Assembly (NCBI GenBank): GCA_043804695.1
Contig: JAZDIV010000128.1
Coordinates: 1-15,184 of the forward strand
Reading direction: 5' to 3'
Length of the DNA stretch: 15,184 bases
Origin: PVC group bacterium
GTDB taxonomy: Bacteria > Auribacterota > Erginobacteria > Erginobacterales > Erginobacteraceae
Within the stretch, counting starts at the first letter, position 1, and each line of letters begins with the position of its first letter. Below are positions 284 to 15,184 of this stretch, piece after piece. The position numbers were made by a program, and so were the translations under genes. Below the pieces are notes generated by a model, which did not search any database, was not told where the DNA came from, and saw nothing but the letters and a program-made list of their open reading frames with translations.

Positions 284-296
284 TCCCCCCCTTTGT

Positions 297-628: not shown

Positions 629-659
629 GCGATTGAAACCGCGATGCGGTTTCAATCGC
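629..659. repeat. Perfect 14-bp inverted repeat with 3-nt loop
   Basis: GCGATTGAAACCGC-GAT-GCGGTTTCAATCGC, with outer GCTTCTTGC (588-596) / GCAAGAAGC (674-682) arms. Confidence 0.7.
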
Positions 660-860
660 CTTTGGGCACGGCCGCAAGAAGCCCGCCAGGCCTCGTTTTA
701 TCCGGTGATCAATGCTCTTTCCCCGAGGCAGCGTTCAACCCCCTTTAATCTTTGGTCGCCAAAGTTTCCTGGTTGCGTTTGATCCGTACTCTCCTTATAG
801 AAAGTCCGGGGATTTCGCAGCCTGCCCCCACCAAAACGCGGAAAAGCCTGTTAACAAGCT

Positions 861-885
861 CTTAGCCCCGCGGAGCGGGGCTAAG
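861..885. repeat. Perfect 11-bp hairpin with GGA triloop, inside a longer imperfect inverted repeat (847-901)
   Basis: CTTAGCCCCGC-GGA-GCGGGGCTAAG, flanked by CCTGTTAACAA ... TTGTTAAACAGG. Confidence 0.7.
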
Positions 886-1058
886 CAGGTTGTTAAACAG
901 GACTTTCCCGCCCCCCTACCTGCCCCTACCTTTGTTCCCTCCCATCCGGTCGGGAGGCCCCCGCAGTCAGGCCCAAACGCCGGGCCTTTCTCCTGCGGGG
1001 GCTTGGTACCGCCCTTCGGTCGGTTCTTTTTTCTTATTTCTCCGGACCATCGCCCCCC

Positions 1059-1098
1059 AAAAAAAAGAGAACCCCCGGAATGGCAATCCACTCCGGGG
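1059..1098 (-). terminator. Rho-independent terminator downstream of hicA
   Basis: On the minus strand a GC-rich stem CCCCGGA-G-TGG/CCA-T-TCCGGGG is followed by GTTCTCTTTTTTTT, about 20 nt after the hicA stop. Confidence 0.7.
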
Positions 1099-1120
1099 TC
1101 AAAAAAAATAAACGTGGGAA

Positions 1121-1351
1121 TCAACGCAGAAGATCACGCAGATCTTCTTTGCTGATCCGGGCGACAGAAAGTATCGAAGCAAGTGTTTTAGGAGCAATCT
1201 CCTTGTGGTCGGGAATTGTTACCTTCAATGTTTCGGTGGGAAGAGACTTTTCGAGTCGAATATGGCTTCCCCGTTGCTGGATAACTACAAAGCCGACACG
1301 CCGGAGCGCCTTGACCAGATCCTTTCCGGAGACAAGTGGAAGTTTGCTCAT
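1121..1351 (-). CDS. hicA: HicA family toxin (type II TA mRNA interferase)
   Basis: 76-aa basic protein with LP.VSGKDLVKAL...GF.....GSH (catalytic His)...VTIP.HKEI...TL.SIL, typical of HicA. Its start overlaps the hicB stop (ATGA, 1348-1351). Confidence 0.92.
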   Translation of the reverse strand: MSKLPLVSGKDLVKALRRVGFVVIQQRGSHIRLEKSLPTETLKVTIPDHKEIAPKTLASILSVARISKEDLRDLLR

Positions 1352-1560
1352 ACGGCCAGTTCAATCACCTGGGCGTGAGCATCCGTGGGGAGTTGTTCTT
1401 CAACCGGCTCCAGATACAAAAGGATAGCTTCCTTGATGTTCTTCAGCGTATCTTCTACGCCTTTTCCCTGGGATATGCAGCCGGGGAGGCTGGGGACCGA
1501 AGCAGTATACCATCCTCTTTTTCCCGATGGTTCGATGACAACCTTAAACTTCATGATCAT
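1348..1560 (-). CDS. hicB: HicB family antitoxin (short form, no C-terminal DNA-binding domain); true start may be ATG 1554
   Basis: MKFKVVIE...GWYTASVPSLPGCISQG....DTLKNIKEAILLYLE is the HicB partial RNase-H-fold signature. A GGAG RBS lies upstream. Confidence 0.92.
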   Translation of the reverse strand: MIMKFKVVIEPSGKRGWYTASVPSLPGCISQGKGVEDTLKNIKEAILLYLEPVEEQLPTDAHAQVIELAV

Positions 1561-1619
1561 TTTCTCCGTTGAAGGCTATCTCCTTAATTACATTACATAA
1601 ATATATCATGATTTTAAGA

Positions 1620-1648
1620 ATGGTACCATAAATCACATGTCGTGACAA
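1620..1648 (-). promoter_or_regulatory. Candidate sigma70 promoter for hicBA
   Basis: Minus strand TTGTCA (1648-1643), 17-nt spacer, then TACCAT (1625-1620) with an extended -10 TGn. Confidence 0.5.
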
Positions 1649-1678
1649 CCAGTTCATGAGCCGGACTTTCCCCGTTTT

Positions 1679-1729
1679 TAGCCTGGATTATTCATGAAAA
1701 TTGAAAATTTTCATGAATAATCCAGGCTA
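1679..1729. repeat. Perfect 24-bp inverted repeat with 3-nt spacer, TA at both ends
   Basis: TAGCCTGGATTATTCATGAAAATT-GAA-AATTTTCATGAATAATCCAGGCTA. Confidence 0.85.
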
Positions 1730-1939
1730 CTGATTGTCGTTCAATGTATTATGGATAGCAATCTTGTTTATGCGGCGGCAGCACTCTGCTTTTTCTTCTC
1801 CGAAAAGACAACGTGTTGTTCTTCCTGTTAACGCTGCCGGAAGAAGTAAACCTTTGGCTGTAATTCATTGCCGGAGAATTTGATAAAATCAACATATTAC
1901 CGTGTTGCCGTTCTTTTAACTTTTGTCATTGTTCAAAAC

Positions 1940-1967
1940 TAACCCGATTTATGGATAAATCGGTTTA
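1940..1967. repeat. Near-perfect palindrome just past the HAD gene stop (possible terminator or REP-like element)
   Basis: TAACCCGATTTAT-GG-ATAAATCGGTTTA, 12/13 paired, TA at both ends. Confidence 0.5.
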
Positions 1968-1971
1968 ATCT

Positions 1972-2470
1972 TTAGATCAAAAGCGGGAGAATGTCCTCGA
2001 AACGATCGATGATGTAGGTGGGGTGATAGGGGGTTTCCCCTTCCTGGGAGACGTTCCTCTTCTGGATCGACGACGCCGAGTAATAGCTTAACCGGGCCCG
2101 GGCCTTCGGGGAGATGACGGTTCCGTACCGGGCCCAGACATCGGCGATCCCCATCTCCTGGGCGATCCGGATATCTTTTTTACAGTTGTCCCCCACCAGC
2201 ACCACCTGGTCGGGTGTAATCCCTTCCTTCTCCAGGAGGAGCCGGAGCCCCGCCGTACTGGGTTTTTCATACTCCAGGGGCATCTGGACCACCTTCCCCA
2301 CCCGGGAACGGTAGTACCCGGCCCTAATCCGGTTGATAATCAGCCTGTCCAGCAGGGGTTCTTCCGGGAGGGGGTAGGACTGGAGGGCGTAGAGGGCCCA
2401 GATATACTGTGTTATAAATAGTGTTGTCGGCGTCAGTGATCAGCGTGGTGATCCCGGGCAGTTTTTTCAT
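1972..2470 (-). pseudogene. HAD-superfamily hydrolase pseudogene (large internal deletion plus frameshift)
   Basis: ATG 2470 with AAGGGA RBS gives MKKLPGITTLITDADNTIYN (HAD motif I, DxD), and that frame then stops. A different frame gives ITQYIWALYALQ...YEKP (motif III)...VLVGDNCKKD (motif IV)...WARYG to the stop at 1972. Motif II and the cap domain are absent. Confidence 0.8.
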
Positions 2471-2541
2471 GGGTTTCCCTTCTTGAGTTCTGATGTAAAA
2501 TTCGATACTGTATCCTATTCTGAGATTAAGTCATTTTTCCT

Positions 2542-2765
2542 GTTGAACTTTAAATGGGCGAATGGCGCCTGCCTGCCGGCAGGCAGGGAATTGGCATACC
2601 CCGTTATCAGTTGAACTTTATATGGGCGAATGGCGCCTGCCTGCCCTGCCTACCGGCAGGCAGGCGGCAGGCAGGGAATTGACATACCCCGTTATCTGTT
2701 GAACTTTATATGGGCGAATGGCGCCTGCCTGCCGGCAGGCAGGGAATTGGCATACCCCGTTATCA
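2542..2765 (+). repeat. Tandem array (68, 88, 68 bp) of tRNA-Leu leader plus 5' fragment, each copy interrupted by a 20-bp palindrome
   Basis: Units start at 2542, 2610 and 2698: GTTGAACTTTA(A/T)AT-GGGCGAATGGCG-[CCTGCCTGCCGGCAGGCAGG]-GAATTG(G/A)CATAC-CCCGTTATC(A/T). A fourth unit from 2766 has no insert and continues into the intact tRNA. Confidence 0.95.
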
Positions 2766-2779
2766 GTTGAACTTTATAT

Positions 2780-2861
2780 GGGCGAATGGCGGAATTGGCA
2801 TACGCGCTGGATTTAGGATCCAGTCCCGAAAGGGATGGGAGTTCGAGTCTCCCTTCGCCCA
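2780..2861 (+). tRNA. tRNA-Leu(TAG)
   Basis: Acceptor stem GGGCGAA/TTCGCCC plus discriminator A; anticodon arm CTGGA-TTTAGGA-TCCAG; long variable arm TCCC-GAAA-GGGA; T-arm GGGAG-TTCGAGT-CTCCC. No CCA encoded. Confidence 0.96.
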
Positions 2862-2890
2862 TTTAAATTTTTCTTCGAAAAATTTAAATG
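2860..2890. repeat. Perfect 14-bp hairpin abutting the tRNA-Leu 3' end
   Basis: CATTTAAATTTTTC-TTC-GAAAAATTTAAATG (C-GAA-G loop on the minus strand). Confidence 0.7.
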
Positions 2891-2969
2891 ATTGCAGTGG
2901 AACGGAATTTATTCTTTATGTAATGATCATAACAGAGGAAACGGCATTTTCGGCGAAACTATTGTTCCA

Positions 2970-2999
2970 TTGCTCAATCGAAATTGATATAGTTATACT
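2970..2999 (+). promoter_or_regulatory. Candidate sigma70 promoter for tRNA-Gly/tig
   Basis: TTGCTC (2970-2975), 18-nt spacer, TATACT (2994-2999) in AT-rich DNA upstream of tRNA-Gly. Confidence 0.4.
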
Positions 3000-3023
3000 G
3001 ATAATGTGAAATAGAGTTCACAT

Positions 3024-3065
3024 CTATTATTTTTTCCCCCGCCGGAGGCGGGGGAAAAATAATAG
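3024..3065. repeat. 19-bp hairpin with GGA triloop abutting the tRNA-Gly 5' end
   Basis: CTATTATTTTTTCCCCCGCC-GGA-GGCGGGGGAAAAATAATAG, with one bulged T. Confidence 0.75.
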
Positions 3066-3137
3066 GCGGGAGTAGCTCAGCGGTAGAGCCCCACGTTGCC
3101 AACGTGGTTGTCGCGGGTTCAAATCCCGTCTCCCGCT
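3066..3137 (+). tRNA. tRNA-Gly(GCC)
   Basis: Acceptor stem GCGGGAG/CTCCCGC plus discriminator T; D-arm GCTC-AGCGGTA-GAGC; anticodon arm CCACG-TTGCCAA-CGTGG; T-arm GCGGG-TTCAAAT-CCCGT. No CCA encoded. Confidence 0.97.
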
Positions 3138-3207
3138 CTCGATCCCGGTTGGTATGGAATCATCCCGCCGGCGGACAAAGGGGAGGGGGCCCTCCCCGCC
3201 GGGCGGC

Positions 3208-3240
3208 TTGCCGGCAGGGTCCCCCGGCAACTATTTTTCT
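3208..3240 (+). terminator. Possible terminator/processing hairpin between tRNA-Gly and tig
   Basis: TTGCCGG-CAGGGTCCC-CCGGCAA followed by CTATTTTTCT. Confidence 0.35.
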
Positions 3241-3255
3241 GTTGTGGAGAGGTTG

Positions 3256-4515
3256 ATGACGACAAAGGTCACCGTGCAGGAACTCCATCCCTGCCGGAGG
3301 GAACTGACGATCGAGGTCCCTCCCGAGGTCATGGAGAAAGAAATAGCATCCGTCTATGCCGGGCTGGGCGCCGCCCGCTCGGTCCCCGGCTTTCGCCCCG
3401 GAAAGGCTCCCCGGAAGGTTCTGGAGAAATATTTCCGCGAGGAAGCCCGCTCGCAAACGGTCAGCAACCGGGTCCGGGAGGGGTATCTGGAGGCGATCCG
3501 GGAGCAGGAGATGCGCGTTGTCGGGGATCCGGACTTCAGCGATATTGACTGGTCCGCCGGCGGGCGCCTCCGCTTCAAGGCCGCCGTGGACATCAGCCCC
3601 CCGCTGGAGCTCAAGAATTACCGGGGCATCCGGATCAGCGCCGGCAGCGGCCGGGTCGAAGATCACGAAATAGATCGAATCCTGGAAGGACTGCGGGAGC
3701 GATCCGCCGTGTTCGAAACTCTGGCCGCTCGGCCGCTCGGGGAAGGCGACTGGGCCCTGGTCGATTACCGTCCTTCCGGCCGCCCTGATGATGACTGGAC
3801 TGAAGGGATCCTGGTCGAAGTCGCCGCCGCCGCCGGGATCGGGCCTCAGCTGGCGGGGATGAAGCCCGGGGAGGTCAGAGTGATCAAGATAACACCTTCG
3901 GACCGGCAAAAGCCCGCGGCCGGCGAGCTCGAGCTGGAGATCCGTCTCCGCGAGATAAAGAAGAAGATTTTGCCGGCAGCCACCGATGAATGGGCCCATA
4001 CCTGGGGTCAATTCAAGGGGATGGAAGAGATGCGGGAACAGATCAGGGAAGATGTCAGGAAGAGGAAGGAGATCGAGCAGCGGAGGTCGGCGGAAGAGCA
4101 GGTCGTCGAGTATCTCCTCAAGAAGCATGACTTCCCCCTTCCTCCCTCCACGCTGGATTCCCTGGCCGGGGATTATCGGAAAGAAGCGGAAGAACAGGCG
4201 GAGCGGTATCGCTCATCCGGGGGGGAGAAAGTCCCGCCGGATGAGCTCGACCGGCTCGCCCGCCGGAGAGCGGAAGCGGATCTGCGCCTCCTCTTCATCC
4301 TGGGGGAGATCGTCCGGACGGAAAAAATCGAAGTCGACCCCCGCCTGCTGGCGGAGGAAGTCGCCCGGCTGGCCCGGCGAAAAGAAATTTCCCCGGCCCA
4401 ATGCCGGCGGGAGCTGGAAGAGAGCGGGCGGCTCGGGGCCGTCCGGGACAGTGTGCTCCGGCGATTGACGATGGACTTCATCATCAAAGAGGCCAAGGTC
4501 AAGGAAGTAAAATAA
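3256..4515 (+). CDS. tig: Trigger factor
   Basis: Ribosome-binding motif VPGFRPGKAP, an FKBP-like middle domain and a C-terminal SurA-like domain. Start placed at ATG 3256 behind the GGAGAGG RBS, not 3154. Lies upstream of clpPX. Confidence 0.95.
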   Translation: MTTKVTVQELHPCRRELTIEVPPEVMEKEIASVYAGLGAARSVPGFRPGKAPRKVLEKYFREEARSQTVSNRVREGYLEAIREQEMRVVGDPDFSDIDWSAGGRLRFKAAVDISPPLELKNYRGIRISAGSGRVEDHEIDRILEGLRERSAVFETLAARPLGEGDWALVDYRPSGRPDDDWTEGILVEVAAAAGIGPQLAGMKPGEVRVIKITPSDRQKPAAGELELEIRLREIKKKILPAATDEWAHTWGQFKGMEEMREQIREDVRKRKEIEQRRSAEEQVVEYLLKKHDFPLPPSTLDSLAGDYRKEAEEQAERYRSSGGEKVPPDELDRLARRRAEADLRLLFILGEIVRTEKIEVDPRLLAEEVARLARRKEISPAQCRRELEESGRLGAVRDSVLRRLTMDFIIKEAKVKEVK

Positions 4516-4548
4516 GCAGCAGGACGTGTAACCAGAAGGAGATAGCCA

Positions 4549-5154
4549 GTGGACGAAACGCACTCACAGCTTATTCCGATGGTTGTCGAGCAGACCGGGC
4601 GGATGGAACGGGCGTATGATATCTATTCGCGCCTTTTGAAAGACCGGATCATTTTTCTGGGAACCCCCGTTGATGATTCGCTCGCCAACCTGATTGTCGC
4701 CCAGCTGCTTTACCTCCAGATGGAAGACCCCGAAAAGGATATCAACCTCTACATCAATACTCCGGGGGGCGAGGTCACGGCGGGGCTGGCGATCTACGAC
4801 ACCATGCAGTTCGTGAAATGCGATGTCACCACCTATTGCGTCGGCCAGGCCAGCAGCATGGGAGCTTTGCTCCTGGCGGCGGGGACCAAGAAGAAAAGAT
4901 ACTCCCTCCCGCACGCCCGGATCATGATCCATCAGCCCTGGGGAGGGACCCAGGGCGCCGCGGTCGATATCAGCATCCAGGCGAAGGAAATCCTCCGCCT
5001 GCGGCAAAAATTAAATGAGCTTCTTGCCCTCCATACCGGCCAGCCCTTTGAGAGGATCGAGAAAGACGCCGACCGGGACTTCTTCATGACCGCCGAAGAG
5101 GCGATGGCTTACGGGGTGGTGGATGCGGTGATCAGCAAGCAAAAGGAAAAATAA
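4549..5154 (+). CDS. clpP: ATP-dependent Clp protease proteolytic subunit
   Basis: [27 protein letters not shown], catalytic Ser in GQASSMG, His in RIMIHQP, Asp in DRDFFM. GTG start with AGAAGGAG RBS. Confidence 0.98.
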
Positions 5155-5158
5155 TCCG

Positions 5159-6415
5159 ATGAGTCCTCGCAACCAGGGAGGAGGCGGTCTCCCGCACTGC
5201 TCTTTCTGCGGTTTGCCCGCCTCCGAGTCCGGCCGCCTGATTACCGGACAGGAAGGTTTGATCTGCGAAAAGTGTGTCCGGCTCTGTTCCGAAATGCTGG
5301 AGGGGAAGACGCCGAAAAAGCGGAAACCGCCGTCCCTTCCGGCCCGAACCCCCCCTCCCCACAAGATCAAAGAGTATCTGGACCAGTACGTGATCGGCCA
5401 GGACCGGGCAAAAAAAACGCTGGCCGTCGCGGTCCACAATCATTACAAGCGGATCCGGGAGGCCCGGAAGCCGAGCGGGGTGGAGCTGGAGAAGAGCAAC
5501 ATTTTGATGACCGGTCCCACCGGCAGCGGGAAGACGCTCCTGGCCCGCACTCTGGCCAGATGCCTGCACGTCCCCTTCGCGATCTCCGACGCCACCACCG
5601 TCACGGAAGCGGGGTATGTGGGCGAGGATGTGGAAACGATCATTCTGCGCCTTCTCCAGGCGGCGGATTACGACGTGGAGAGAACCCAGACCGGCATCAT
5701 TTATATCGATGAGATTGATAAGATCGCCCGCCGGACGGAGAACGTTTCGATTACCCGGGATGTCTCCGGAGAAGGAGTGCAGCAGGCGCTGCTGAAGATA
5801 CTTGAAGGAACGGTCTGCAATGTCCCCCCCAAGGGCGGGAGAAAGCATCCCCACCAGGAGTTTATCCAGGTTGACACCGCGAATATTCTCTTCATCTGCG
5901 GCGGCGCCTTCATCGGTCTGGATGACACGATCCGGCGGCGTCTGGGCAAAAGGGTGATCGGATTTGACGCCTCCGTCGCCGGGGCCGGGGAGATGAAGCG
6001 GGGCGACCTGCTTTCCCTGGTCGAGCCGGAGGACCTCATCAAGTACGGGATGATTCCGGAGTTTGTCGGACGTCTGCCGGTTCAGACCGCGTTGTATGAT
6101 CTGGGGAAAGATGATCTGGTCAAAATACTGACCGAGCCGAAGAACGCGCTCCTCAAGCAGTACGCCCGGCTGCTGGAACTGGAGGATGTGGAGCTGAAGT
6201 ACACCGCCGACGCGCTGGCGTTCCTGGCTGATCAGGCGATCCGCAAGGGGACCGGCGCCCGCGCTCTCCGGAGCCTGCTGGAGCGGGTCATGCTTGACGT
6301 CATGTATGAGATCCCTTCCCGGAAGGATCTTCATCAGTTTGAGCTGACCGAAGCGCTCCTGAAGAAACGGTGTCGGCAGATTTCCTCTTCCGACGCTTCC
6401 GCCCGGGCAGCGTAA
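5159..6415 (+). CDS. clpX: ATP-dependent Clp protease ATP-binding subunit ClpX
   Basis: C4 zinc domain CSFC...ICEKC, Walker [13 protein letters not shown] pore loop, Walker [13 protein letters not shown] and IGF loops, GARALR. Confidence 0.98.
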
Positions 6416-6436
6416 GAGCAGCTCCGGATCCGTGAG

Positions 6437-7169
6437 ATGAATGCCCCGATCAGAGAGTACCCCCGGCATGTGGCGATCATCATGGACGGGAACGGCCGCT
6501 GGGCGCAAAAACGCGGGCTCTCCCGGCTGGAAGGCCATCGCGCCGGCGCGGAGGCGGTGCGAAAGATCACCACCGCCGCGGCGGAAATGGGCCTCGGGTA
6601 CCTGACCCTCTACGCCTTCTCGGTCGAGAACTGGCGCCGGCCCAAACGCGAGATCCAGGGCCTGATGCGTTACCTGAAAGAGTACCTCCGGAGCGAGCTC
6701 CCCGTCATGCAGGAGAACAACATCCGTCTGCGAGCCATCGGGCGCATTGCTGAATTCCCGGCCGGCGTTCGGGAAGTGCTGTCCCGGACGATCGCCGCCA
6801 CCGCGAAAAATACCGGCCTGACTCTGACCCTGGCCCTCAACTACCGCGGCCGGGCGGAAATAATCGACGGGGTCAAAAAAAATCGTCCGGGAAGCGCTGG
6901 CGGGGGAGATATCCGCGGACATGATCGACGAAGCGTTTTTCTCCCGGCATCTCTATGCCGGCGACATCCCGGACCCCGATCTGCTGATCCGCACCAGCGG
7001 TGAAATGAGGGTGAGCAACTTCCTGCTCTGGGAGATCTCTTATACCGAGCTCTGGGTGACACCGGTCTGCTGGCCCGATTTCGGACGGGAAAACCTGGAG
7101 GCGGCGATCGCGGACTACCGGCAGAGGGAGCGCCGCTTCGGCGGTCTTATTTTTCCTTCGGAAAAATAA
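6437..7169 (+). CDS. uppS: Undecaprenyl/polyprenyl diphosphate synthase, split by an apparent +1 frameshift in the A8 tract at 6875-6882
   Basis: N-part (ORF 6437-7003): PRHVAIIMDGNGRWA, YAFSVENWRRP. C-part (ORF 6921-7169): PDPDLLIRTSGEMRVSNFLLW, WPDF, RERRFGG. Removing one A joins them as GVKKIVREALAGEISADMIDE. Confidence 0.93.
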
Positions 7170-7198
7170 GAATGTGCAAGCATTGAAAGTGAATTTCA

Positions 7199-7226
7199 TT
7201 ACACTTTACACATTACACCTTACACA
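7199..7226 (+). repeat. Heptamer tandem repeat (TTACACH)x4
   Basis: TTACACT TTACACA TTACACC TTACACA. Confidence 0.85.
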
Positions 7227-7257
7227 TAAATTTGCGAGCGTAGCGAGCTAATTTAAA

Positions 7258-8121
7258 ATGTCGAAAACACGGGTGATAACGGCGATTCCGCTGCTCCTGA
7301 TTCTGATCGGGGTTATTTATTTCAGCTTTACCGCGCCGATCCTTTTCTTCCTGGCCGGCAATCTTTTCGTCGGCCTCGGGATGCGCGAGTTTGTGCGGAT
7401 GACCGACGGGATCCGGGCCGTCGGCATCCTGGGGGGACTCTGTCTTTTTTCCTCGGTGTTCCTGGCCTCCGTCGGACACAATGCCCTGCCGCCCCATCTC
7501 TCCGTCTTCGTGGGCAGCACCTGGGGAGACGCGGTGCTTTTCGCCATCGTCGCGGTTTTGTTTATCTTTCAGGCTACCCGCCGGGACGGCGGAAATGCCA
7601 TCAGCAAGATCAGCACCACCCTGACCGGCATCATCTACGTGGCCTGGCTCTTCTCTTTCCTCCCCCGGATCAACTATTATTTTCAATCGGCCCCCGTCGG
7701 CGCCGACGATGGCCGGTTTTACGTCTTCTTTCTGTTTCTGGTCGTCAAGGTCAACGACTCGGCGGCCTATTACATCGGATCAAAATGGGGTCAGCACAAG
7801 CTCATCCCCCGGATCAGCCCCGGCAAGACCATCGAAGGGACCGTGGGAGGGGTGCTGACAGGCGGTTTGAGCGCGGTGGCCGGAAAGTTTCTTTTTTCCC
7901 TTGGCCGCCTGACCTGGCCGGCGGCGCTGACCCTGGGTCTGGTCCTGGGGACGGCGGCGGTGATGGGCGACCTGGCGGAGTCCCTTCTCAAGAGATCCTC
8001 CGGGCAGAAGGATTCGGGGCGGACGTTGCCGGGGATGGGGGGGATACTTGATCTGCTGGACAGCCTTTTCTTTACCGCCCCCCTGCTGTATTTATATATG
8101 AAGCTAGTTTTAAAACTTTAG
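7258..8121 (+). CDS. cdsA: Phosphatidate cytidylyltransferase
   Basis: Polytopic membrane protein with DSAAYYIG..WG.HKL.P.ISPGKTIEG and GDLAESLLKR..G.KDSG..LPG.GGILD..DS motifs, in the uppS-cdsA-dxr context. Confidence 0.96.
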   Translation: MSKTRVITAIPLLLILIGVIYFSFTAPILFFLAGNLFVGLGMREFVRMTDGIRAVGILGGLCLFSSVFLASVGHNALPPHLSVFVGSTWGDAVLFAIVAVLFIFQATRRDGGNAISKISTTLTGIIYVAWLFSFLPRINYYFQSAPVGADDGRFYVFFLFLVVKVNDSAAYYIGSKWGQHKLIPRISPGKTIEGTVGGVLTGGLSAVAGKFLFSLGRLTWPAALTLGLVLGTAAVMGDLAESLLKRSSGQKDSGRTLPGMGGILDLLDSLFFTAPLLYLYMKLVLKL

Positions 8122-8163
8122 GCACTTAAGAACATCGCCCGAGCAAAGCGAGGGCAAAGTTCC

Positions 8164-9336
8164 ATGAAGAAGATCGTCATCTTAGGTTCCACCGGGTCGA
8201 TCGGCACCGGCACCCTCGATGTGGTTCGCCGGGACCCCGGCGCCTTCCGGGTTCTCGGCCTGGGCGCCGGGGAGAACACCGGGCTGCTCCAGCGCCAGAT
8301 TGAGGAGTTCGGTCCGGCCCGGGCGGCGGTTGCCGGAGAGCGGCAGGCCCGGAGTCTCCGGGCCCGGCTGGGCGGGAAGGTCGATCTCCTCTGGGGCGAT
8401 CGCGGCCTGGAGGAACTGGCGGCCGATGAGGAGGCCGATCTGGTGGTGGTTGCCATTCCGGGCACGAAAGCCCTCCTGCCCGCCTTCGGCGCCATCCGGC
8501 GGGGAAAAGATATCGCCCTGGCTTCCAAGGAAATCCTGGTGGCGGCGGGCGAGCTGGCCCTGGCCGAGGCCGCGGTCAGCGGAAGCCGGATTCTTCCCGT
8601 TGACAGCGAGCACTCGGCGGTCTTTCAGTGCCTCCGGGGAGAGCGGAGAGAGTCGGTCCGGAAGATCATCCTCACCGCCTCCGGGGGACCCTTTCTGAAC
8701 GCATCCCGGGCCGAACTGGAGAAGGCGACCGCCGCGCAGGCGCTCCGGCACCCGCGCTGGAAGATGGGACGGAAGGTCACGCTGGACTCGGCGACCCTGA
8801 TGAACAAGGGGCTGGAGGTGCTGGAGGCGCGCTGGCTCTTCGGCCTGCCGCTGGACCGGATCGATATCGTCATCCACCCCCAGAGCATCGTCCATTCCCT
8901 GGTCGAGATGTGCGACGGGTCTCTCCTGGCCCAGATGAGCCGGCCGGACATGCGGCTCCCGATCTCGTACGCGCTCTATTATCCGGACCGCTCGCCGCGG
9001 GTATTTCAGGCGACGGCGCTCCCGGTTCTGGAGCCGCTGACCTTTTTCGAGCCTGACCGGGAGACCTTCCCCGCCCTCGATCTCGCCGTCCGGGCCGGCG
9101 CCGCCGGGGGGACGATGCCGGCGGCGATGAACGCGGCCAATGAAGCGGCGGGGGCGGCGTTTTTGAAAAATGAGATCCCCTTTCTCGGGATCATGGAAGT
9201 GGTGGAATCGGTGATGGATGACCATCAGGTCGTTTTCTCGCCCGATCTCCCGGCGATCCTGGCGGCGGACCGGTGGGCGCGGAGGAGGGCGGAAGAGTTG
9301 ATCAGGGTTTACCGGCGAAGATCGCAGGTGCTATAA
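8164..9336 (+). CDS. dxr: 1-deoxy-D-xylulose-5-phosphate reductoisomerase
   Basis: ILGSTGSIG NADPH motif, LPVDSEHSA, LTASGGPF, HPRWKMG.K.T.DSATLMNKGLE, NAANE. Confidence 0.98.
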   Translation: MKKIVILGSTGSIGTGTLDVVRRDPGAFRVLGLGAGENTGLLQRQIEEFGPARAAVAGERQARSLRARLGGKVDLLWGDRGLEELAADEEADLVVVAIPGTKALLPAFGAIRRGKDIALASKEILVAAGELALAEAAVSGSRILPVDSEHSAVFQCLRGERRESVRKIILTASGGPFLNASRAELEKATAAQALRHPRWKMGRKVTLDSATLMNKGLEVLEARWLFGLPLDRIDIVIHPQSIVHSLVEMCDGSLLAQMSRPDMRLPISYALYYPDRSPRVFQATALPVLEPLTFFEPDRETFPALDLAVRAGAAGGTMPAAMNAANEAAGAAFLKNEIPFLGIMEVVESVMDDHQVVFSPDLPAILAADRWARRRAEELIRVYRRRSQVL

Positions 9337-9479
9337 TTTAATGTGAATTATAAGCATTGAAACAACGTCACCGACTTATTTTTCAGTTACCGGTATTGCC
9401 GCAATGGAATCATATCTAGACTTTGTTCAAAACATAAAGTAGCGCCGAAGGCGCTAAGTTCTCAGAAGAGGAATAAAAA

Positions 9480-11102
9480 ATGGATGAGATTGTCGTCTGG
9501 CTGATCAGCATAGCTAAGTTCGGGGTGATGCTGGGAATACTGATCTTTGTTCACGAACTGGGCCATTTTCTGGTCGCCCGCCGGTTCGGGGTATATATCA
9601 AAAAGTTCTTTCTCGGTTTTGACATCGGGGGGCTGAAGCTTTTCAGTTACAAAGGCAGGGAAACCGAGTACGGGATCGGCATCCTGCCCCTGGGGGGATA
9701 CGTCAAGATGGCCGGGCAGGAAGACCTGCCGCCGGGGGACGAAGAGGCGCGGGAGAAGCTGGAAAACGAGGACCGGGACATCCCCCCGGAGCGACGGTTC
9801 GACCGCCGGCCCCTCCCTCAGAGGGCGGCGATTGTCTTTGCCGGCCCCCTGATGAACCTGATTCTGGGGCTGGTCGTGTTTATCCTGGTCGCGATGATCG
9901 GGATCGAGGTCCCCCGGTATCTGAGCGAACCGCTGGTCGGCCTGGTGGAAAAAGGACTCCCGGCGGAGGCTGCCGGGGTTCAGCCGGGAGACCGGATCCT
10001 GGCGGTGGGGGGACGAAAGATCGAGGACTGGCCCGCTCTCCGCTGGGAACTCCGGCTGGTTCGGTCCGGCGAGGAAGTGCCGATCACCCTGGAAAGAGAG
10101 GGGGAGCGGTTGACGGTCATGGTCCGGCCGGAAATAGTCCGGGGCACCGGCTACCCCCGGATCGGGATCCTGCCCGGAGGTGAGGCGGTGGTCTGGGCGA
10201 TCCAGAGCGTCTCCCCCGCCGCCGCCGCCGGTTTGCGTGTCGGCGACATCATCGTCTCCGTCGACGGGGTCCCCCTGTACTGCCCGTTCCTGGATGAGAT
10301 TATCGGCGATCAACCCGCGGGAACGGTCGCGGGGCTGATCCGTCGGCCGGAGACGGGGGAGACGCTTCATCTCGACCTCCCCACCTTTTCGGTGAGCATG
10401 ATCCCCGGGCTCTATCTTGACCGCGACCGGGTGCTGAACGTCGACTATCAGGCCGAGGGCGAGGTGGGGATGATGAAAAAGGGCGATCGGATTGTGGCCA
10501 TCGACGGGGAAGCAACGGCCCCGTCGGATGTTGCCGGGACGATCAACGCCGCCCGGGCCGGAGAAACCCTCGTCCTCACCGTCAGCCGCGCCGGCTGGAT
10601 GTTTTTCAAGCCGTCTTCATCCTTTGCGGTCCGGGCCGCCGTCCGGCCCCTGACCGCGGTGGAGGGGGTGCATCTCAATTACCCCGCCGAGACGGTGCTG
10701 GTGCGCTACTCCGGCTTGCGCGCCGTCGCGGTCGGGGCCACCAATGCCCTCGAGAGCGTGGAGAAGATGATAACGGTCTTCACCGGAATGATTGTCGGGC
10801 AATTCGGGGCCTCTGAAGTCTCCGGTCCGATCGGGATTTTCACCATTACCAGCCAGCATCATGAACTGGCGGAACTGCTCTCCCTGCTGGCCCTGATCAG
10901 CATCAATCTCGGGCTGATCAATCTGTTCCCGCTTCCGGTTCTGGACGGCGGGCATCTGTTATTCTTCCTCTTCGAGGCGATCATCCGGCGGCCCCTCCCG
11001 CCCCGGCTTCTCCTGGTCGCCCAGCAGATCGGCCTGGCGATGATCGCGGTTCTTGTCGTCTTGATCACCTACAAGGACATTCTGCGGGTGCTGGGGTATT
11101 GA
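9480..11102 (+). CDS. rseP: RIP metalloprotease RseP (site-2 protease with PDZ domains)
   Basis: HELGH zinc motif, LPLGGYVKM, AGPLMN, PDZ segments, SGPIGI, NLFPLPVLDGGH. Confidence 0.96.
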   Translation: MDEIVVWLISIAKFGVMLGILIFVHELGHFLVARRFGVYIKKFFLGFDIGGLKLFSYKGRETEYGIGILPLGGYVKMAGQEDLPPGDEEAREKLENEDRDIPPERRFDRRPLPQRAAIVFAGPLMNLILGLVVFILVAMIGIEVPRYLSEPLVGLVEKGLPAEAAGVQPGDRILAVGGRKIEDWPALRWELRLVRSGEEVPITLEREGERLTVMVRPEIVRGTGYPRIGILPGGEAVVWAIQSVSPAAAAGLRVGDIIVSVDGVPLYCPFLDEIIGDQPAGTVAGLIRRPETGETLHLDLPTFSVSMIPGLYLDRDRVLNVDYQAEGEVGMMKKGDRIVAIDGEATAPSDVAGTINAARAGETLVLTVSRAGWMFFKPSSSFAVRAAVRPLTAVEGVHLNYPAETVLVRYSGLRAVAVGATNALESVEKMITVFTGMIVGQFGASEVSGPIGIFTITSQHHELAELLSLLALISINLGLINLFPLPVLDGGHLLFFLFEAIIRRPLPPRLLLVAQQIGLAMIAVLVVLITYKDILRVLGY

Positions 11103-11184
11103 GGAATACGGTAAGCGGTGAGCGCGGAGCGAATCGGTTATCGTTGAAGCGAGGGCTAAGTTACTGCTTCGGAATTTCAAAAAC

Positions 11185-11301
11185 GGTAACGGTAAGGGTA
11201 ACGATGCCCGTATCGGTGAGGGTAATGGTAACGGCTGCCTCGCTGGGCGCACGTAACCGTAACCGGCAGACGAAACGGGCATCGTCACCGTAACCGTAAC
11301 C
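11185..11301. repeat. Inverted hexamer arrays (GGTAAC)n ... (CGTAAC)n forming a long imperfect hairpin
   Basis: Left arm GGTAAC GGTAAG GGTAAC...GGTGAG GGTAAT GGTAAC; right arm CGTAAC CGTAAC...CGTCAC CGTAAC CGTAAC. Perfect core ACGATGCCCGT (11201-11211) / ACGGGCATCGT (11275-11285). Confidence 0.85.
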
Positions 11302-11327
11302 ACGTTGCGCCGAAGGCGCTAATTTAT

Positions 11328-12401
11328 ATGAAGAGACGTTTGACTCGTCGAATTATGGTCGGAGACGTCCCCATTGGCGGGGGTGCTCCGATAACCGTTC
11401 AGTCAATGGCCAAGACCGACACCCGGGACGCGGCGGCGACGGCGCGCCAGATCGACGGGCTGGCCGCCGCCGGATGCGAGATCGTCCGGGTGGCCGTCCC
11501 CGACGAAGCCGCCGCCGCCGCCATCCCGGCTGTCTGTGAAAGTTCTCCGATCCCGGTGATCGCCGATATCCACTTCGATCATCGTCTGGCCCTGACCGCG
11601 ATCGCGGGCGGGGTGGCCGGGCTCCGGATCAATCCGGGGAACATCGGAGCCGCCTGGAAGGTCCGGGATGTGGTCCGGGCCTGCCGGGAGAAGAACCTGC
11701 CCATCCGGGTGGGGGCGAACGAGGGTTCCCTGAGCGGGGAGATGGAGGCGAAGTACGGCGGACCCACCCCCCGGGCCCTGGTCGAGAGCGCGTTAAGAGA
11801 AGTGGCGGTGATCGAGAAGGAGGGGTACGGGGAGATAAAGATATCGGTAAAAGCGTTTGACGTTTTTACCGCCCGTTCCGCCTACCGGCTGCTCTCCCGG
11901 AAGACAGATTACCCGCTCCATGTCGGGATCACCGAGGCCGGGCCTCCGGTTCCGGGGACGGTCCGGTCCGCGATCGGGATTTCCCTGCTCCTCCTGGAGG
12001 GGATCGGCGATACGATCCGGGTCTCGCTCAGCGCCGATCCCGTCCGGGAAGTGCGGGTGGGGAGAGAGATCCTGCAGACGCTGGGCTTGCGGAGCTTCGG
12101 CCCGGTCATCGTCAGTTGCCCGACCTGTGGCCGGACCCGGATCGATCTCCTCTCCCTGCTCGGGGAGGTCGAGAGCAGGGTCGCCGCATTACCGTTCCTG
12201 GACAAACTGTCCGGCTTCAAGATAGCGGTGATGGGGTGTGAGGTCAATGGCCCGGGAGAAGCCCGCCGGGCCGATCTCGGCATCGCGGGAGGAAAAGAAA
12301 GCGCCCTCCTTTTCAAGGGCGGGAGCGTTATCGGCCGGTTCCCCGTTTCCGGCGTGGTTGATGCCCTGATAGATGAATTAAAGAAAGGTGCGGCCCAGTA
12401 A
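11328..12401 (+). CDS. ispG: (E)-4-hydroxy-3-methylbut-2-enyl-diphosphate synthase (two-domain IspG/GcpE)
   Basis: IGGGAPITVQSM, ADIHFD, RINPGNIG, PLHVGITEAG, GIGDTIRVSL, and Fe-S ligands SCPTCGR and MGCEVNGPGE. Confidence 0.98.
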   Translation: MKRRLTRRIMVGDVPIGGGAPITVQSMAKTDTRDAAATARQIDGLAAAGCEIVRVAVPDEAAAAAIPAVCESSPIPVIADIHFDHRLALTAIAGGVAGLRINPGNIGAAWKVRDVVRACREKNLPIRVGANEGSLSGEMEAKYGGPTPRALVESALREVAVIEKEGYGEIKISVKAFDVFTARSAYRLLSRKTDYPLHVGITEAGPPVPGTVRSAIGISLLLLEGIGDTIRVSLSADPVREVRVGREILQTLGLRSFGPVIVSCPTCGRTRIDLLSLLGEVESRVAALPFLDKLSGFKIAVMGCEVNGPGEARRADLGIAGGKESALLFKGGSVIGRFPVSGVVDALIDELKKGAAQ

Positions 12402-13594
12402 TTTCCGGTCCGACAAAATATTTCTGGCCGGCAGCTGTTTTCATTCCGGCACTGACGATTCGGCTGATCTGCGGGTTAACCGGACCGGAAAAATATTGCG
12501 ATCCGGACGAAGCCGTCTACCTGGCCATAACCTCCAATGTCCTGGAGGGGAAAGGAGTGATCCTCAATCAGTATCGACAGGCTTCCTTCCCTCCCCTCTA
12601 TCCCGTTTTTCTGGCCGGGCTGCGGCGGATGGGCATCGGATCGATCAGGGATATCCGGCTGGTGCAGGCGTTTCTGGGCGCCGGATCCTGTCTCTGGCTG
12701 ATGGGAATCGCGCACCGGGCATTCTCGCGGCATGAGAACAGCCTGGCCATCTCGGTGGTTGCCGCCCTGCTCCTGGCGGTATACCCCCCCGCGATCTGGT
12801 ATGGCCGGCAGGTGATGACCGAAACAGTTTTCATGTTTCTTCTTCTGTCCGGGATATACTGTCTTTTCCGCAGTATCGAGAGTAAAAGAATGCACCGTTG
12901 GCTGGCGGGGGCCGGGATTTTTTTCGGACTGGGGATTCTCTGTCGTCCGACTTTGCTGCCGTTTGCTTTTGTCATCCCCCTCTGGATAGTGATGGTCCGG
13001 CCGGACGTTCGATTCCGGCGCGTCATCAGTTATCTTGTGCCCCTGGCACTGATTATGGCGCCCTGGGGAGCGAGGAACTATCGGCTTTTTCACCGGGTCA
13101 TCCCGGTCACCACCCAGGCCGGCAATATCCTTTATCTGGCCAACAATCCGTTAGCCTCCGGCGGGACCGTCAGCATCAGCTATTATCTCCAGGCGGGGAT
13201 CTACCATCTGGGGGATGAAGAGGATGAATTGACCTATAATCAGGAATACGGCCGCCGGGCGGTTGATTTTATTACCGCCTCGCCGATGCGATTTCTCCGC
13301 CTTTGTTTACGGCGGCTGGCCTGGTTCTATCATCTGGACGGTCATCACCGCCGGCCTGTTTTGCTTGTCCCTTTCTGGGGGGTGATCGTTCTGGCGATCG
13401 CCGGTTTCTGGCTGGCTCGCGAGCGCTGGAAAGCGACCTTTCCCCTTCTTCTCCTGGTCATTAATTTTACGGCCATTCACATGGTGTTCCCGCCCGAGGG
13501 ACGATACCGGTTGCCCGTCATGCCGGCCTTCTTCCTGTTCGCTGCCGTTGCCTTGATTGAGATCTATACCCGTTTGGGCGGTAATCATGAGTGA
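12388..13594 (+). CDS. ArnT/PMT-like (GT-C fold, GT39/GT83-like) membrane glycosyltransferase; start uncertain and upstream of the called GTG 12557
   Basis: The frame of ORF 12557-13594 is open back to 12377 and reads AAVFIPALTIRL...DPDEAVYLAITSNVLEGKG...FPPLYP, followed by MTE, LCRP, PW..RNY..F and GRYRLP motifs and many TM segments. That frame has no ATG/GTG/TTG before 12557. Likely start is GTG 12388 with a +1 shift near 12430, or a non-canonical start. Confidence 0.8.
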
Positions 13595-15092
13595 AGTCAA
13601 ACGAATTGCCGGCAACACGGCGGCTCTGGTTTTCGGCCGGGGCATCCGTCTCCTGGTCTCCATCGTGCTGGGGATTGTTCTCGCCCGTTATCTCGGACAG
13701 ATCCATTACGGCAACTGGACCGTCGCCCGGTCCCTTTGCGCTCTGCTGACCATCCTGAGCTCTCTCGGGCTGAGCAAGATCGCCATCCGGGAGTGCGCCG
13801 TCAGGGTGGATGAGGCCGGGCGTTACCTGGGGACCGTTCTCGCGCTCACTGCGGCATTTTCCCTCATCAGTGTTCTGGTCGCCGTCCTGCTCGTCTCCGG
13901 CCTCGGTTATCATGCCGAGATTGCCTGGCTGGTCTTCATCGCGCTCGGGGTTTACATCCTCTCCTCCCTCGGGGAGGCCTTCGTGATCCAGTTCCGCTCC
14001 CGCGAAAAAATGGGGTACGAGGCTTTGAGTAATATTTGCAAGGACCTGCTCCTCATGCTCCTGGTCTTTCTGGCGGTCTACCTTTCCTGGGGCGTGCTGC
14101 GGGTCGCCGGCATCTACCTGTTCGCGGCCGCCGCCTACGTTCTCTTCTCCTGGGCCCTGGCGCGGAAAAAATTCCCCTCCCCGCCGCTCTCTCTCGACCT
14201 GTCGCTGGCTCCCCGCCTCATTCTCGGCGGCCTCCCTCTGGCCCTGGCCATCTTTTTCAATTCTTACCACGAGGTGACCAGGATCATCATCCAGAAGACG
14301 ATCGGCTCTGCGGGGGCGGGATATTACAGCGCGGCGGTCCTCCCCTATATGGCCCTGGAGAGCACCGTCATCATCGCCATCATGGGGGCGGTCTTTCCCG
14401 TTCTTTCCCGGCGTCATCTGATCGACCGTCCCGGGCTGGCGTCCCTCTACCGGAGGATGAGCAGATACCTTTTCATGCTCTCCCTGCCGGTTGCTCTGTA
14501 CTGTTTGTTTCTGGGGGACGAGCTGATCCTGATCATGTTCGGCCCCGATTATCTCGACGCCGTGCCGGTCCTGAAAACCATGGGCCCCGTTTTCATCCTG
14601 ATGTTCCAGAACTACCTCCTCTACAACGCGATGGTGGCCTGCCGGAAGGAATGGTGCTTTGCCTGGATCATGGGTGTCGGCGCGCTTATCAACGCGGCCG
14701 CGGCGGTCTTTTTTACAACTGTTCTCTCCCGCGCCGGTGACCCGATAGTGATCGGGAACTCAACCGCCGGGGTCGGGATCCGGCTGATCGGCGTTACGGG
14801 AGGGCCGATTGCCCTGATCATCGCCCAGCTCTTTACCGCGGTTGCTCTCAGCCTGGTCCTTTACCGTGAATATCGGCAGCTTCTGATCCTGAAAAAATGG
14901 CTCCGGCCTTTCGCCGCGGCGCTCCTAACGGGCGGTTTGATCCGGTGGGAGGGCATGCTGGACCTCCCGGCGGGGGTGGTGCTTGCCTCCAGCGCGGTCT
15001 TTTACGGACTGCTGCTTTTCTTCCTCGGGAGTTTCGACCGGACGGATCAGGACATATTTATGTCGATTCTTTTTACTGCGCGAAAAGAATAG
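13587..15092 (+). CDS. Wzx-like oligosaccharide/polysaccharide flippase
   Basis: RIAGNT...LARYLG...YG, GYYSAA, AVFPVLSR, FGPDY..AVPVL, with many hydrophobic segments (MOP superfamily). ATG 13587 overlaps the end of the upstream gene. Confidence 0.88.
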   Translation: MSEVKRIAGNTAALVFGRGIRLLVSIVLGIVLARYLGQIHYGNWTVARSLCALLTILSSLGLSKIAIRECAVRVDEAGRYLGTVLALTAAFSLISVLVAVLLVSGLGYHAEIAWLVFIALGVYILSSLGEAFVIQFRSREKMGYEALSNICKDLLLMLLVFLAVYLSWGVLRVAGIYLFAAAAYVLFSWALARKKFPSPPLSLDLSLAPRLILGGLPLALAIFFNSYHEVTRIIIQKTIGSAGAGYYSAAVLPYMALESTVIIAIMGAVFPVLSRRHLIDRPGLASLYRRMSRYLFMLSLPVALYCLFLGDELILIMFGPDYLDAVPVLKTMGPVFILMFQNYLLYNAMVACRKEWCFAWIMGVGALINAAAAVFFTTVLSRAGDPIVIGNSTAGVGIRLIGVTGGPIALIIAQLFTAVALSLVLYREYRQLLILKKWLRPFAAALLTGGLIRWEGMLDLPAGVVLASSAVFYGLLLFFLGSFDRTDQDIFMSILFTARKE

Positions 15093-15105
15093 GTGTATTG
15101 CTTGC

Positions 15106-15136
15106 CCCGGGTAGGTAATCCGGGTTATTTTTGTTT
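15106..15136 (+). terminator. Possible Rho-independent terminator after the flippase
   Basis: CCCGGGT-AGGTA-ATCCGGG followed by TTATTTTTGTTT. Confidence 0.5.
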
Positions 15137-15184
15137 AAACAACAGCCCCCGGCGCTCGCGGCGGGGAGCCATTAGAATCGTGCG

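Follow-up and report, generated by a model that had tools for sequence, protein, structure and literature searches.

The window analyzed here is a stretch of 15,184 nucleotides (contig JAZDIV010000128.1 of assembly GCA_043804695.1, positions 1 to 15,184) from a PVC group bacterium of the family Erginobacteraceae; it is contig C128 of a 155-contig, 2.97-Mb assembly with 57.8% G+C, labeled G000 below. It carries the core genes uppS, cdsA, dxr, rseP, and ispG in this order, and a short hairpin followed by an A+T-rich hexamer precedes each of the last four. Gene positions throughout are those of our own rough set of calls (2193 genes, 80% of the genome). Four hairpin-plus-hexamer sites had been reported in an earlier note on this DNA, and all four are present where it placed them:

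7227..7255 (+): cdsA copy; 5' half with outer arm TAAATTT (7227-7233), core GCGAGC (7234-7239), and loop GTA (7240-7242); 3' half with core GCGAGC (7243-7248) and outer arm TAATTTA (7249-7255); ATG at 7258, after 2 nt
8130..8162 (+): dxr copy; outer pairs GAAC/GTTC, core GCCCGAGC (8137-8144), and loop AAA (8145-8147); 3' half with core GCGAGGGC (8148-8155), then AAAGTT (hairpin plus hexamer, 8137-8161); ATG at 8164
9435..9461 (+): rseP copy, TAAAGTA-GCGCC-GAA-GGCGC-TAAGTTC ((A)GCGCC hairpin plus hexamer, 9441-9460); ATG at 9480
11300..11326 (+): ispG copy; core GCGCC (11307-11311), loop GAA, core GGCGC (11315-11319), and 3' arm TAATTTA; ATG at 11328

Two related features lie between rseP and the ispG copy:

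11108..11144 (+): separate hairpin with a 2x2 G.A/G.A internal loop, directly 3' of the rseP stop codon
11147..11162 (+): half copy, consisting of a 3' arm of the GCGAGGGC-TAAGTT type only

The details on which the earlier note had built were also recovered. The 16-mer GCGCCGAAGGCGCTAA is identical at 9442 and 11307, two matches compared with none in 200 shuffles, and the half copy agrees with positions 8146-8161 of the dxr copy at 15 of 16 positions. Tandem G.A mismatches form a 2x2 G.A/A.G loop in the stems at 7234-7248 and 8137-8155 and in the hairpin within 11108-11144. The cdsA, dxr, and ispG genes are preceded by a Shine-Dalgarno (SD)-like word of at most 4 nt, which lies inside the 3' arm of the hairpin; an SD-like GAGGA (9468-9472) is located between the rseP hairpin and its ATG. 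The dxr copy lies in a 42-nt spacer (fold, -13.2 kcal/mol), and the ispG copy stands at the 3' end of a 225-nt spacer. The RNA fold z-scores, calculated with nearest-neighbor energies, were -0.8 for cdsA, -4.0 for dxr, -4.2 for the rseP region, and -1.4 for ispG; the segment 11108-11166 folded at -18.8 kcal/mol (z-score, -1.6). DNA folding parameters gave weaker folds for the window hairpins than did RNA parameters, and the nearest-neighbor models used do not include the special stability of C-GNA-G loops. The four hairpins are significant because of their recurrence in the genome and not because of the folding energy of single sites. At the Rfam 15 gathering score, two tRNAs were the sole matches in the window, and the hairpins matched no RNA family.

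The four sites are copies of one dispersed repeat, an imperfect palindrome of about 30 nt that is not specific to this operon. Its enrichment is far above chance: the 16-mer GCGCCGAAGGCGCTAA occurs 68 times in the genome, GGCGCTAATTTA occurs 129 times, and GAGCTAATTTAT occurs 101 times, and the pattern GCGCCGNAGGCGCTAAKTT gave 88 matches versus none for the reversed control. A search with five core types (GCGCC/GGCGC, GCGGC/GCCGC, GCGAGC/GCGAGC, GCGACC/GGGAGC, and GCCCGAGC/GCGAGGGC) and any loop identified 292 copies with a GNA or AAA loop, 196 of which (95 + 101) have [TA]AA[TG]TT directly 3' of the core. The G+C core is 5 to 8 pairs long, and the last three core types pair with tandem G.A mismatches, so that in duplex DNA they are direct repeats (67 perfect GCGAGC...GCGAGC copies). 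Among hexamer-bearing copies, 181 perfect cores and 46 cores with a single mismatch were counted. The commonest form is a 12-3-12 palindrome, TAAATTAGCGCC-NNN-GGCGCTAATTTA. The 5' feet of the hairpins read TAAATTA, TAAAGTA, or AAGTT, and the stem is followed by TAATTTATA, TAAGTTCTA, or AAAGTTCC and also by GTTCTAA or GTTCC. The 15-mer core of the cdsA copy has four occurrences in the genome, each directly followed by TAATTTA. A scan of the genome with a covariance model, as proposed in the earlier note, likewise returned many copies. The model, R1, scored the rseP copy at 42.2 bits (E, 7e-7), the ispG copy at 37.8 bits (E, 8e-6), and the cdsA copy at 20.4 bits (E, 0.13), the last with its outer arm paired in the fold and a 2x2 G.A loop. 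R1 was built on copies with five-pair cores; it is therefore biased to the GCGCC type and misses the dxr copy. A literature search of narrow basis, on Auribacterota and on intergenic hairpin repeats at start codons, returned no prior description of the element.

The copies are intergenic and oriented. Only 5 of the 196 hexamer-bearing copies lie inside gene calls. Of 2156 genes, 112 have a TAATTT that begins 6 to 11 nt 5' of the called start, most often at -9 (43 genes), and a second, broad TAATTT group lies at -19 to -27, ahead of an SD. For intergenic hexamer-bearing copies with a called neighbor, the downstream gene is co-oriented in 149 of 184 cases (p, 6e-18). Where the core ends 5 to 12 nt from a start codon, the loop reads GNA in the gene sense in 110 copies and TNC in none; the gap between hairpin and ATG is typically 0 to 5 nt at these start-adjacent copies, 19 of which have a divergent upstream neighbor. 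Thirty-five hexamer-bearing copies face a gene on the opposite strand, and only three of these cases are gene miscalls. In stop-adjacent spacers the whole cassette (upstream module plus hairpin) is reversed, as in contigs C49, C110, and C61, and the stop codon is often the TAA of the A+T arm; of the 19 spacers with a reversed stop-adjacent copy, 2 also hold a start-adjacent copy in sense orientation. The hairpin end of the cassette tends to abut an open reading frame (ORF) boundary either way, at about 110 starts and about 21 stops, which may reflect very short ancestral spacers plus an orientation bias.

The hexamer (T/A)AA(T/G)TT had been described in the earlier note as an element beside the hairpin. 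It is indeed present there, but as part of the hairpin and not as a box of its own: it forms the 3' strand of an outer stem rich in A+T, and its sequence covaries with that of the 5' arm. The commonest flanks, TAAATTA...TAATTTA, occur in 121 of 331 scan matches, and two-sided variants include TACATTA/TAATGTA and TAAAATA/TATTTTA here and TAAGTTA/TAACTTA and TAAATGA/TCATTTA in the genome G001, of the same genus. When copies were picked on core and loop alone, 169 of 292 had at least six of seven Watson-Crick outer pairs (shuffle mean, 100; maximum, 113), a test that is inflated by relatedness among the copies. MAFFT alignments A1 and A2, which mixed cores of 5, 6, and 8 pairs, were inconsistent with the structure and were replaced by an alignment of 21 five-pair copies (A3); it shows changes on both sides at 8 of 12 pairs, in a set that was selected for pairing and thus leans towards structure. 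Imperfect arms are frequent, with T.T beside the core in 107 copies and G.A at the third position in 116. Copies with a single mismatch comprise 16 with G.T, 6 with A.C, and 13 with other changes, and where the core is the perfect palindrome GCGCC and only one side carries the hexamer, that side is 3' of the GNA strand in 49 copies and 5' of it in 2. Together, the polarity, the mismatch bias, and the G.A cores indicate that the folded strand is the coding strand, as either mRNA or single-stranded DNA.

The hairpin is usually the last part of something longer. Start-adjacent copies usually close spacers of 100 to 500 nt, and a minimal spacer was seen for only 2 to 4 of 80 copies, the dxr copy included. 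At least seven types of upstream module were found, in combination with several hairpin subfamilies; examples are the G+C hairpin CAGACCCCCGAC...GTCGGGGGTCCA, ...GGTACAATTCACTCCAATTCTTC, ...TTGGTTCAAAACA, GGTGTCTTAGTGGC, TTGAAATTCCGAAGCAG, and arrays of GGTAAC units. In the window, the modules are as follows:

7146..7170 (+): palindrome CTTATTTTTCCTTCGGAAAAATAAG, containing the uppS stop codon, first of the modules between uppS and cdsA
8118..8136 (+): upstream module of the dxr cassette, a ACTTTAGGCACTT unit and then AAGAACATC
11163..11299 (+): modules of the ispG spacer, CTGCTTCGGAATTTCAA and then facing arrays of GGTAAC-like units

Words of the form TTTTTCC-GGA-GGAAAAA, related to the palindrome at 7146-7170, have about 40 copies in the genome (a terminator-like site at 7131-7145 lies just 5' of this palindrome), the ACTTTAGGCACTT unit family has about 146, and GCTTCGGAATTT has 92, the ispG combination of module and hairpin preceding at least four other genes. 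The upstream module of the rseP copy, ttgttcaaaacataaa, also accompanies copies in genome G003 and at locus L152. Fourteen GCGAGGGCWAAGTT sites were found in the genome, several without a 5' arm or with a nested insert. At four loci (C47, about 1540-1580; C37, about 11250; C83, about 9660; C63, about 14480), the GNA loop is replaced by the small hairpin CCCGAT(A/T)(A/T)ATCGGGG plus TAGACTNC; with a second hairpin in its position, the loop seems to be a place where nested insertion occurs. Another palindrome family next to start codons, AAAATTTTTCC-GGA-GGAAAAATTT-TA-ATG, occurs at many loci of this genome (e.g., C134, C84, and C47). Its C-GGA-G loop reads together with the 3' arm as the SD GGAGGA, so that the ribosome binding site is enclosed in a weak A+T hairpin, which looks like a thermometer or sequestration design.

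Among the relatives searched, the element occurs in three or four genera of one family. The pattern search covered 41 genomes, and the R1 search covered 61 genomes of the family, order, and phylum; because 119 candidates were scored per genome, R1 counts are lower bounds:

G000, this genome: 88 pattern matches; at least 112 R1 matches
G001, same genus: 38 pattern matches; at least 88 R1 matches
G003, same family: 47 pattern matches; at least 86 R1 matches
G004, same family: 10 pattern matches; at least 25 R1 matches

G006 had one pattern match, and the other 36 of the 41 genomes had none; the reversed-pattern control gave none in any genome. Weak R1 matches were found in three genomes beyond the main four, G006, G007, and G013 (at least 1, 2, and 2), and no R1 match was found in the other 54 of 61.

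The order uppS-cdsA-dxr-rseP-ispG is kept in every relative examined, including those without the motif, and the junctions are often tight. The cdsA and dxr genes overlap (ATGA) or abut in G004, G005, G002, and L154; at this junction, G001 and L153 have other repeats that end in a half copy, and L152 has GCGAAC-GAA-GTGAGC-AAATTT-AT-ATG. The gap between rseP and ispG is 5 to 16 nt in G001 and G004, and none of eight relatives has the hairpin there. Given the conserved gene order, the tight or overlapping junctions in relatives indicate that the hairpins were inserted between preexisting core genes. Orthologous junctions thus show the indel variation bounded by the motif that the earlier note had asked for. 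The small cargo genes that it had expected between motif copies are absent from all variable spacers examined, which hold only noncoding repeat modules.

Other starts are occupied by different members of the family. The cdsA start of L152 reads GCGAAC-GGA-GTGAGC-TAATTT-ATG, one compensated pair away from the window copy, and that of G001 has GCGTC-GAA-GGTGC with arms ACATTT/AAATGT. In front of rseP, G003 has ACGACC-GTA-GGGAGT, and the L152 copy, ATGATC-GTA-GGGAGT, is decayed, with two C>T changes that each yield a T.G pair; G001 has GCCCGAGT-GAA-ACGAGGGC at 26 nt upstream. The rseP start of L153 carries the cassette of ACTTTAGGCACTT plus GC(A)CGAAC/GTGAGGGC, the one found at dxr in G000, with the array (AACTTTAGGCACTT)n-AAGAACGTT ahead of the GCCCGAGC-type hairpin. 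Subfamilies and whole cassettes have been exchanged between gene starts across genomes. In 752 kb of G001, 269 orthologous starts were compared, 12 of which have a start-adjacent copy in G000; by eye, these 12 G001 starts have a hairpin of another subfamily (seven), a half copy (one), an SD-containing A+T palindrome (one or two), or nothing (two). Under a strict automated rule, 2 of 13 starts were shared, compared with 3 of 269 in G001 (odds ratio, 46; p, 0.006). Spacers of G000 and G001 could not be aligned. The closest matches found in a search for strains had Dxr 63% identical (genome contigs) and RseP 65% identical (metagenome contigs).

With moderate confidence, we read the hairpin as the gene-proximal terminal module of mosaic intergenic cassettes that are mobile or exchanged, in the manner of repetitive extragenic palindromic (REP) sequences, bacterial interspersed mosaic elements (BIMEs), or BOX elements, with the leader hairpin tolerated or used before starts with a weak SD. 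The hairpin with its upstream modules looks like the inserted thing and not like a site that captures genes. Copy number, start polarity, lineage restriction, presence at junctions that are tight in relatives, and the exchange of subfamilies and cassettes are direct observations; how the cassettes move is a matter of proposal. They would spread as DNA, by an enzyme, and probably via a single-stranded folded intermediate, because the loop and G.A chemistry is optimal for DNA. Copies next to start codons would then persist only with the GNA strand in the mRNA, where the hairpin could serve as, or at least be compatible with, a leader element before an A/U-rich, SD-poor start, and the surviving copies would be those filtered by what the mRNA tolerates or needs.

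Several observations weigh against this proposal. No transposase or other mobilizing gene could be linked to the hairpin element, and neither an exact empty site nor a target-site duplication could be delimited, the nearest genomes being too diverged (55 to 90% protein identity). The high identity of the copies is also explicable by selection or gene conversion acting on a functional signal. In the window, two of the four folds are unremarkable by energy, and the 5' arm of the ispG copy, CCACGTT, is unpaired. Of the 35 copies that are not co-oriented with the gene they face, 21 are no more than 12 nt away from the stop of that opposite-strand gene, which start-codon function alone does not explain. 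Two candidate effects on initiation were also rejected: the predicted unpaired probability of the AUG did not differ (0.44 versus 0.46), contrary to a hairpin holding it open, and AAN as the second codon was not significantly enriched (36 of 108 versus 581 of 2047).

Among known systems, REP, REPIN, and BIME sequences resemble the present family in being short, imperfect, extragenic palindromes with hundreds of near-identical copies, mosaics of modules, lineage-specific subfamilies, and folding of one strand, and the genome also encodes REP-associated tyrosine transposase (RAYT) proteins. REPs typically lie after genes or between convergent genes, whereas the present hairpin faces start codons with strict polarity. 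They are also defined by a GTAG-like tetranucleotide at the 5' foot of the hairpin, and a head of this type is lacking from the feet TAAATTA, TAAAGTA, and AAGTT. Nor does the hairpin flank the RAYT gene, which has a repeat of its own. On RAYT flanking and head sequence, the family falls outside REP-RAYT systems. In architecture, the family resembles BIME and BOX mosaics, in which distinct short modules recur in different combinations, as the same cassette does here at different genes across genomes. The BOX elements of Streptococcus pneumoniae (boxA-boxB-boxC) and the Correia elements of Neisseria are likewise modular noncoding cassettes without a transposase of their own, and such repeats can sit in leaders and affect neighboring genes. 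The sequences are unrelated, and the present cassettes differ in ending in a C-GNA-G mini-hairpin 0 to 5 nt from the ATG and in showing neither inverted terminal repeats nor a target duplication.

The nearest published parallel for the placement is found in marine Beggiatoaceae, for which MacGregor (2015; PMC4679880) describes abundant, lineage-restricted TAACTGA direct repeats (169 sets), mostly a few nucleotides upstream of starts where ribosome binding sites are rare. According to the same text, the downstream genes follow no functional pattern, and a role in translation is proposed without proof (PMC4679880). These repeats are tandem heptamers without a hairpin, whereas the present family consists of single folded palindromes with covarying stems, located in larger cassettes. 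The loop itself has precedents in single-stranded DNA. The earlier note had stated that C-GNA-G triloops make very stable DNA hairpins; in PMC13037366 and PMC3201870, GCGNAGC mini-hairpins are described as extraordinarily stable in DNA form, with a much lower stability as RNA, so that the statement holds. Such mini-hairpins occur in single-stranded DNA initiation signals (CCGAAGG in RSF1010 ssiA) and in the hairpin promoter of the N4 virion RNA polymerase, where a stem of 5 bp carries GGA or GAA as its loop (PMC13037366). These hairpins and the present family have in common a C-GNA-G triloop on a 5-bp G+C stem and, in the case of N4, GGA and GAA loops, and CCGAAGG is the center of the GCGCC-GAA-GGCGC copies. 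In contrast, the ssiA and N4 hairpins belong to phages and plasmids, whose dedicated primases or polymerases use them on single-stranded templates (PMC13037366). The present hairpin is chromosomal, has about 200 copies, and lies on the coding strand, whereas N4-type promoters have their triloop, on a stem of 5 to 7 bp, on the template strand read by a virion-type polymerase.

The strongest competing explanation, which we regard as unlikely though well worth weighing, is a purely cis-acting RNA signal kept by selection and without any mobility: a leader hairpin protecting the 5' end, a processing site that yields leaderless or near-leaderless mRNAs, or a substitute for the SD helix. It would account for the sense polarity at starts (110 versus 0), the gap of 0 to 5 nt to the ATG, the covarying stems with G.T above A.C, and the occupation of the same gene starts in the sister species. 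The dxr hairpin, lying in a 42-nt intercistronic spacer, must be transcribed, and many G001 copies have a normal SD downstream, as expected of a leader hairpin. In the genome as a whole, GGAGG peaks at -11 and the 16S rRNA 3' end reads CACCTCCTTT, with CCUCC present, so that SDs are still used in the ordinary way. Of 108 start-adjacent genes, 21% have SD-like words of at least 5 nt, which are located within the loop and 3' arm at a distance of about 12 nt from the ATG, and the commonest start-adjacent type, GCGAGC-GCA-GCGAGC, has only GAG as an SD-like word. ATG is the start codon in 103 of the 108 genes versus 329 of 386 SD-led genes (95% versus 85%; p, 0.005), a preference that fits initiation unable to lean on an SD. 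Presentation of an SD in the loop was rejected as a general role: it suits GGA and GAA loops and not the 30 start-adjacent GCGAGC-GCA copies. By inspection, no pairing of the hexamer with the extended 16S tail was found. Against an RNA signal without mobility stand the discrete, near-identical subfamilies with 181 perfect cores, the whole reversed cassettes at stop codons, the half copies, and the nested loop inserts. In addition, the family is absent from most of the genomes searched in the family, order, and phylum, and hairpins have been gained at junctions that work without one in relatives. The C-GNA-G triloop is the DNA optimum and much weaker in RNA (PMC13037366), and no effect on accessibility was predicted.

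A more specific proposal, quite unlikely in our judgment, is that the C-GNA-G hairpin is a punctuation mark, recognized in the mRNA or on the displaced coding strand by a lineage-specific factor or by the ribosome. A cut at its 3' foot would give near-leaderless mRNAs, or the 30S or 70S particle would be placed on an AUG 0 to 5 nt downstream without an SD helix.

Very unlikely, too, is a DNA signal for transcription, in which the A+T arms act as -10 boxes or the hairpin with a T-rich arm acts as an intrinsic terminator or insulator. Two promoter-like sites, which are consensus matches only, were found near the hairpins:

7205..7232 (+): TTTACA-16-TAAATT, 9/12, the -10 being the 5' outer arm of the cdsA hairpin
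9308..9337 (+): TTTACC-18-TATAAT with TG, 10/12, about 100 nt upstream of the rseP hairpin

The first fits such a signal, as does the reading TATAAAT of many 5' arms; if the second is used, the rseP hairpin lies in a 5' leader. Among the four sense sites, only that of ispG is terminator-like on the plus strand, the rseP hairpin being flagged on the minus strand, and reversed copies lie just past stop codons. However, the arms covary instead of keeping TAnnnT (in G001, they include AAGTTG/CAACTT and TAAGTTA/TAACTTA types), and the dxr and ispG copies lack a TAAATT 5' arm. A -10 box in the 3' arm would start the RNA inside the ORF, the gap to the ATG being 0 to 5 nt. No terminator is needed at the 19 of 110 copies with a divergent upstream neighbor, the stems of 5 or 6 G+C pairs are short for Rho-independent terminators, and the 110:0 polarity of the loop would be unexpected.

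The earlier note had interpreted the sites as same-orientation, structure-defined insertion or recombination sites, that is, folded single-stranded DNA sites like attC or the targets or ends of HUH transposases, at which gene cassettes are inserted or excised. The common orientation, the defined structure, and the occurrence above chance stand, and the DNA-optimal chemistry and strand-specific structure agree with this interpretation; the capture or excision of genes is not supported, and we consider it highly improbable. The core gene order, which predates the motif, is kept in relatives without it, and there is no ORF cargo in the variable spacers examined. The attC core consists of R" and R' sites of the form GTTRRRY. 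Sequences following the present stem (GTTCTAA, GTTCC, and TAATTTATA) do not fit it, although no integrase search was made, and the genes bounded are core genes in conserved order. Candidate enzymes do exist. Six proteins match Y1_Tnp (Y1/HUH), and two of them exceed the NCBIfam cutoff of 80 for RAYTs, with 134 and 91.6 bits; three are below this cutoff, one of which is fused to a DnaA C-terminal domain. No hairpin motif lies within 2.5 kb of any of the six Y1 genes, which also separates the element from an IS200/IS605 end, although tnpB was not searched for. The best RAYT (163 amino acids; NF047646; 134 bits; C62, 5400-6500, locus L001) has TGTGGGAGGGGTTTCCAACCCCGAT / ATCGGGCTTAAAAAGCCCTCCCACA repeats on either side; these have at least 10 copies elsewhere in the genome and differ from the hairpin family. 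Bracketed by a repeat of its own, it represents a classical REP-RAYT pair in this genome, but of another family than the hairpin. The Y1-DnaA_C protein has more matches in the motif-bearing genomes (G003, 21; G001, 6; G004, 3) than in G002 and G005 (1 each); over five related genomes, this excess amounts to a hint at most. An ortholog of the other long Y1 protein, with 51% identity, is present in G005, which is free of the motif. Elsewhere on C62 (11650-12900, locus L002), GCCCCTGCCGC-N5-GCGGCAGGGGA palindromes recur every 69 nt beside a 126-amino-acid IS200-like ORF; they could be a CRISPR-like or REP array.

An operator of a dimeric global regulator reading the duplex palindrome beside starts is hardly credible: the 12-3-12 layout of the commonest form and the fixed position beside genes would suit it, but the tandem-G.A cores are direct and not inverted repeats in the duplex, core length varies from 5 to 8 pairs, the arms covary rather than remaining constant, and the strict loop polarity could not be read by a symmetric dimer.

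Elsewhere in the window, three partial tandem copies (about 60 to 70 nt each) of the 5' part of tRNA-Leu lie at 2520-2862, each interrupted by a CCTGCCTGCCGGCAGGCAGG-type palindrome; the intact tRNA-Leu occupies 2779-2862, and a tRNA-Gly occupies 3066-3138. A 47-nt perfect palindrome at 1686-1732, GCCTGGATTATTCATGAAAATTGAAAATTTTCATGAATAATCCAGGC, belongs to a family of about 43 copies. The uppS gene is split across two frames (6437-7003 and 6921-7169; 244 codons in total), with a run of eight A residues at about 6878-6885; the split is due to a frameshift or to an error in the assembly.

Most descriptions of dispersed palindromic repeats place them at the ends of genes, whereas here, about 1 gene in 20 has the region of its ribosome binding site replaced by a hairpin. 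The genes affected include the essential cdsA, dxr, and ispG, which relatives have in translationally coupled or closely spaced form. Either a hairpin at the place of the SD is tolerated during initiation in this lineage, or it plays a part in initiation; if the hairpin is indeed recognized as a punctuation mark, a selfish repeat would have been turned into a portable, SD-independent start module at about 5% of the genes. Both possibilities have a bearing on the translation of SD-poor genes and on the rewiring of operons by selfish repeats, and for annotation, the hairpin repeats mark the true start codons in these genomes.

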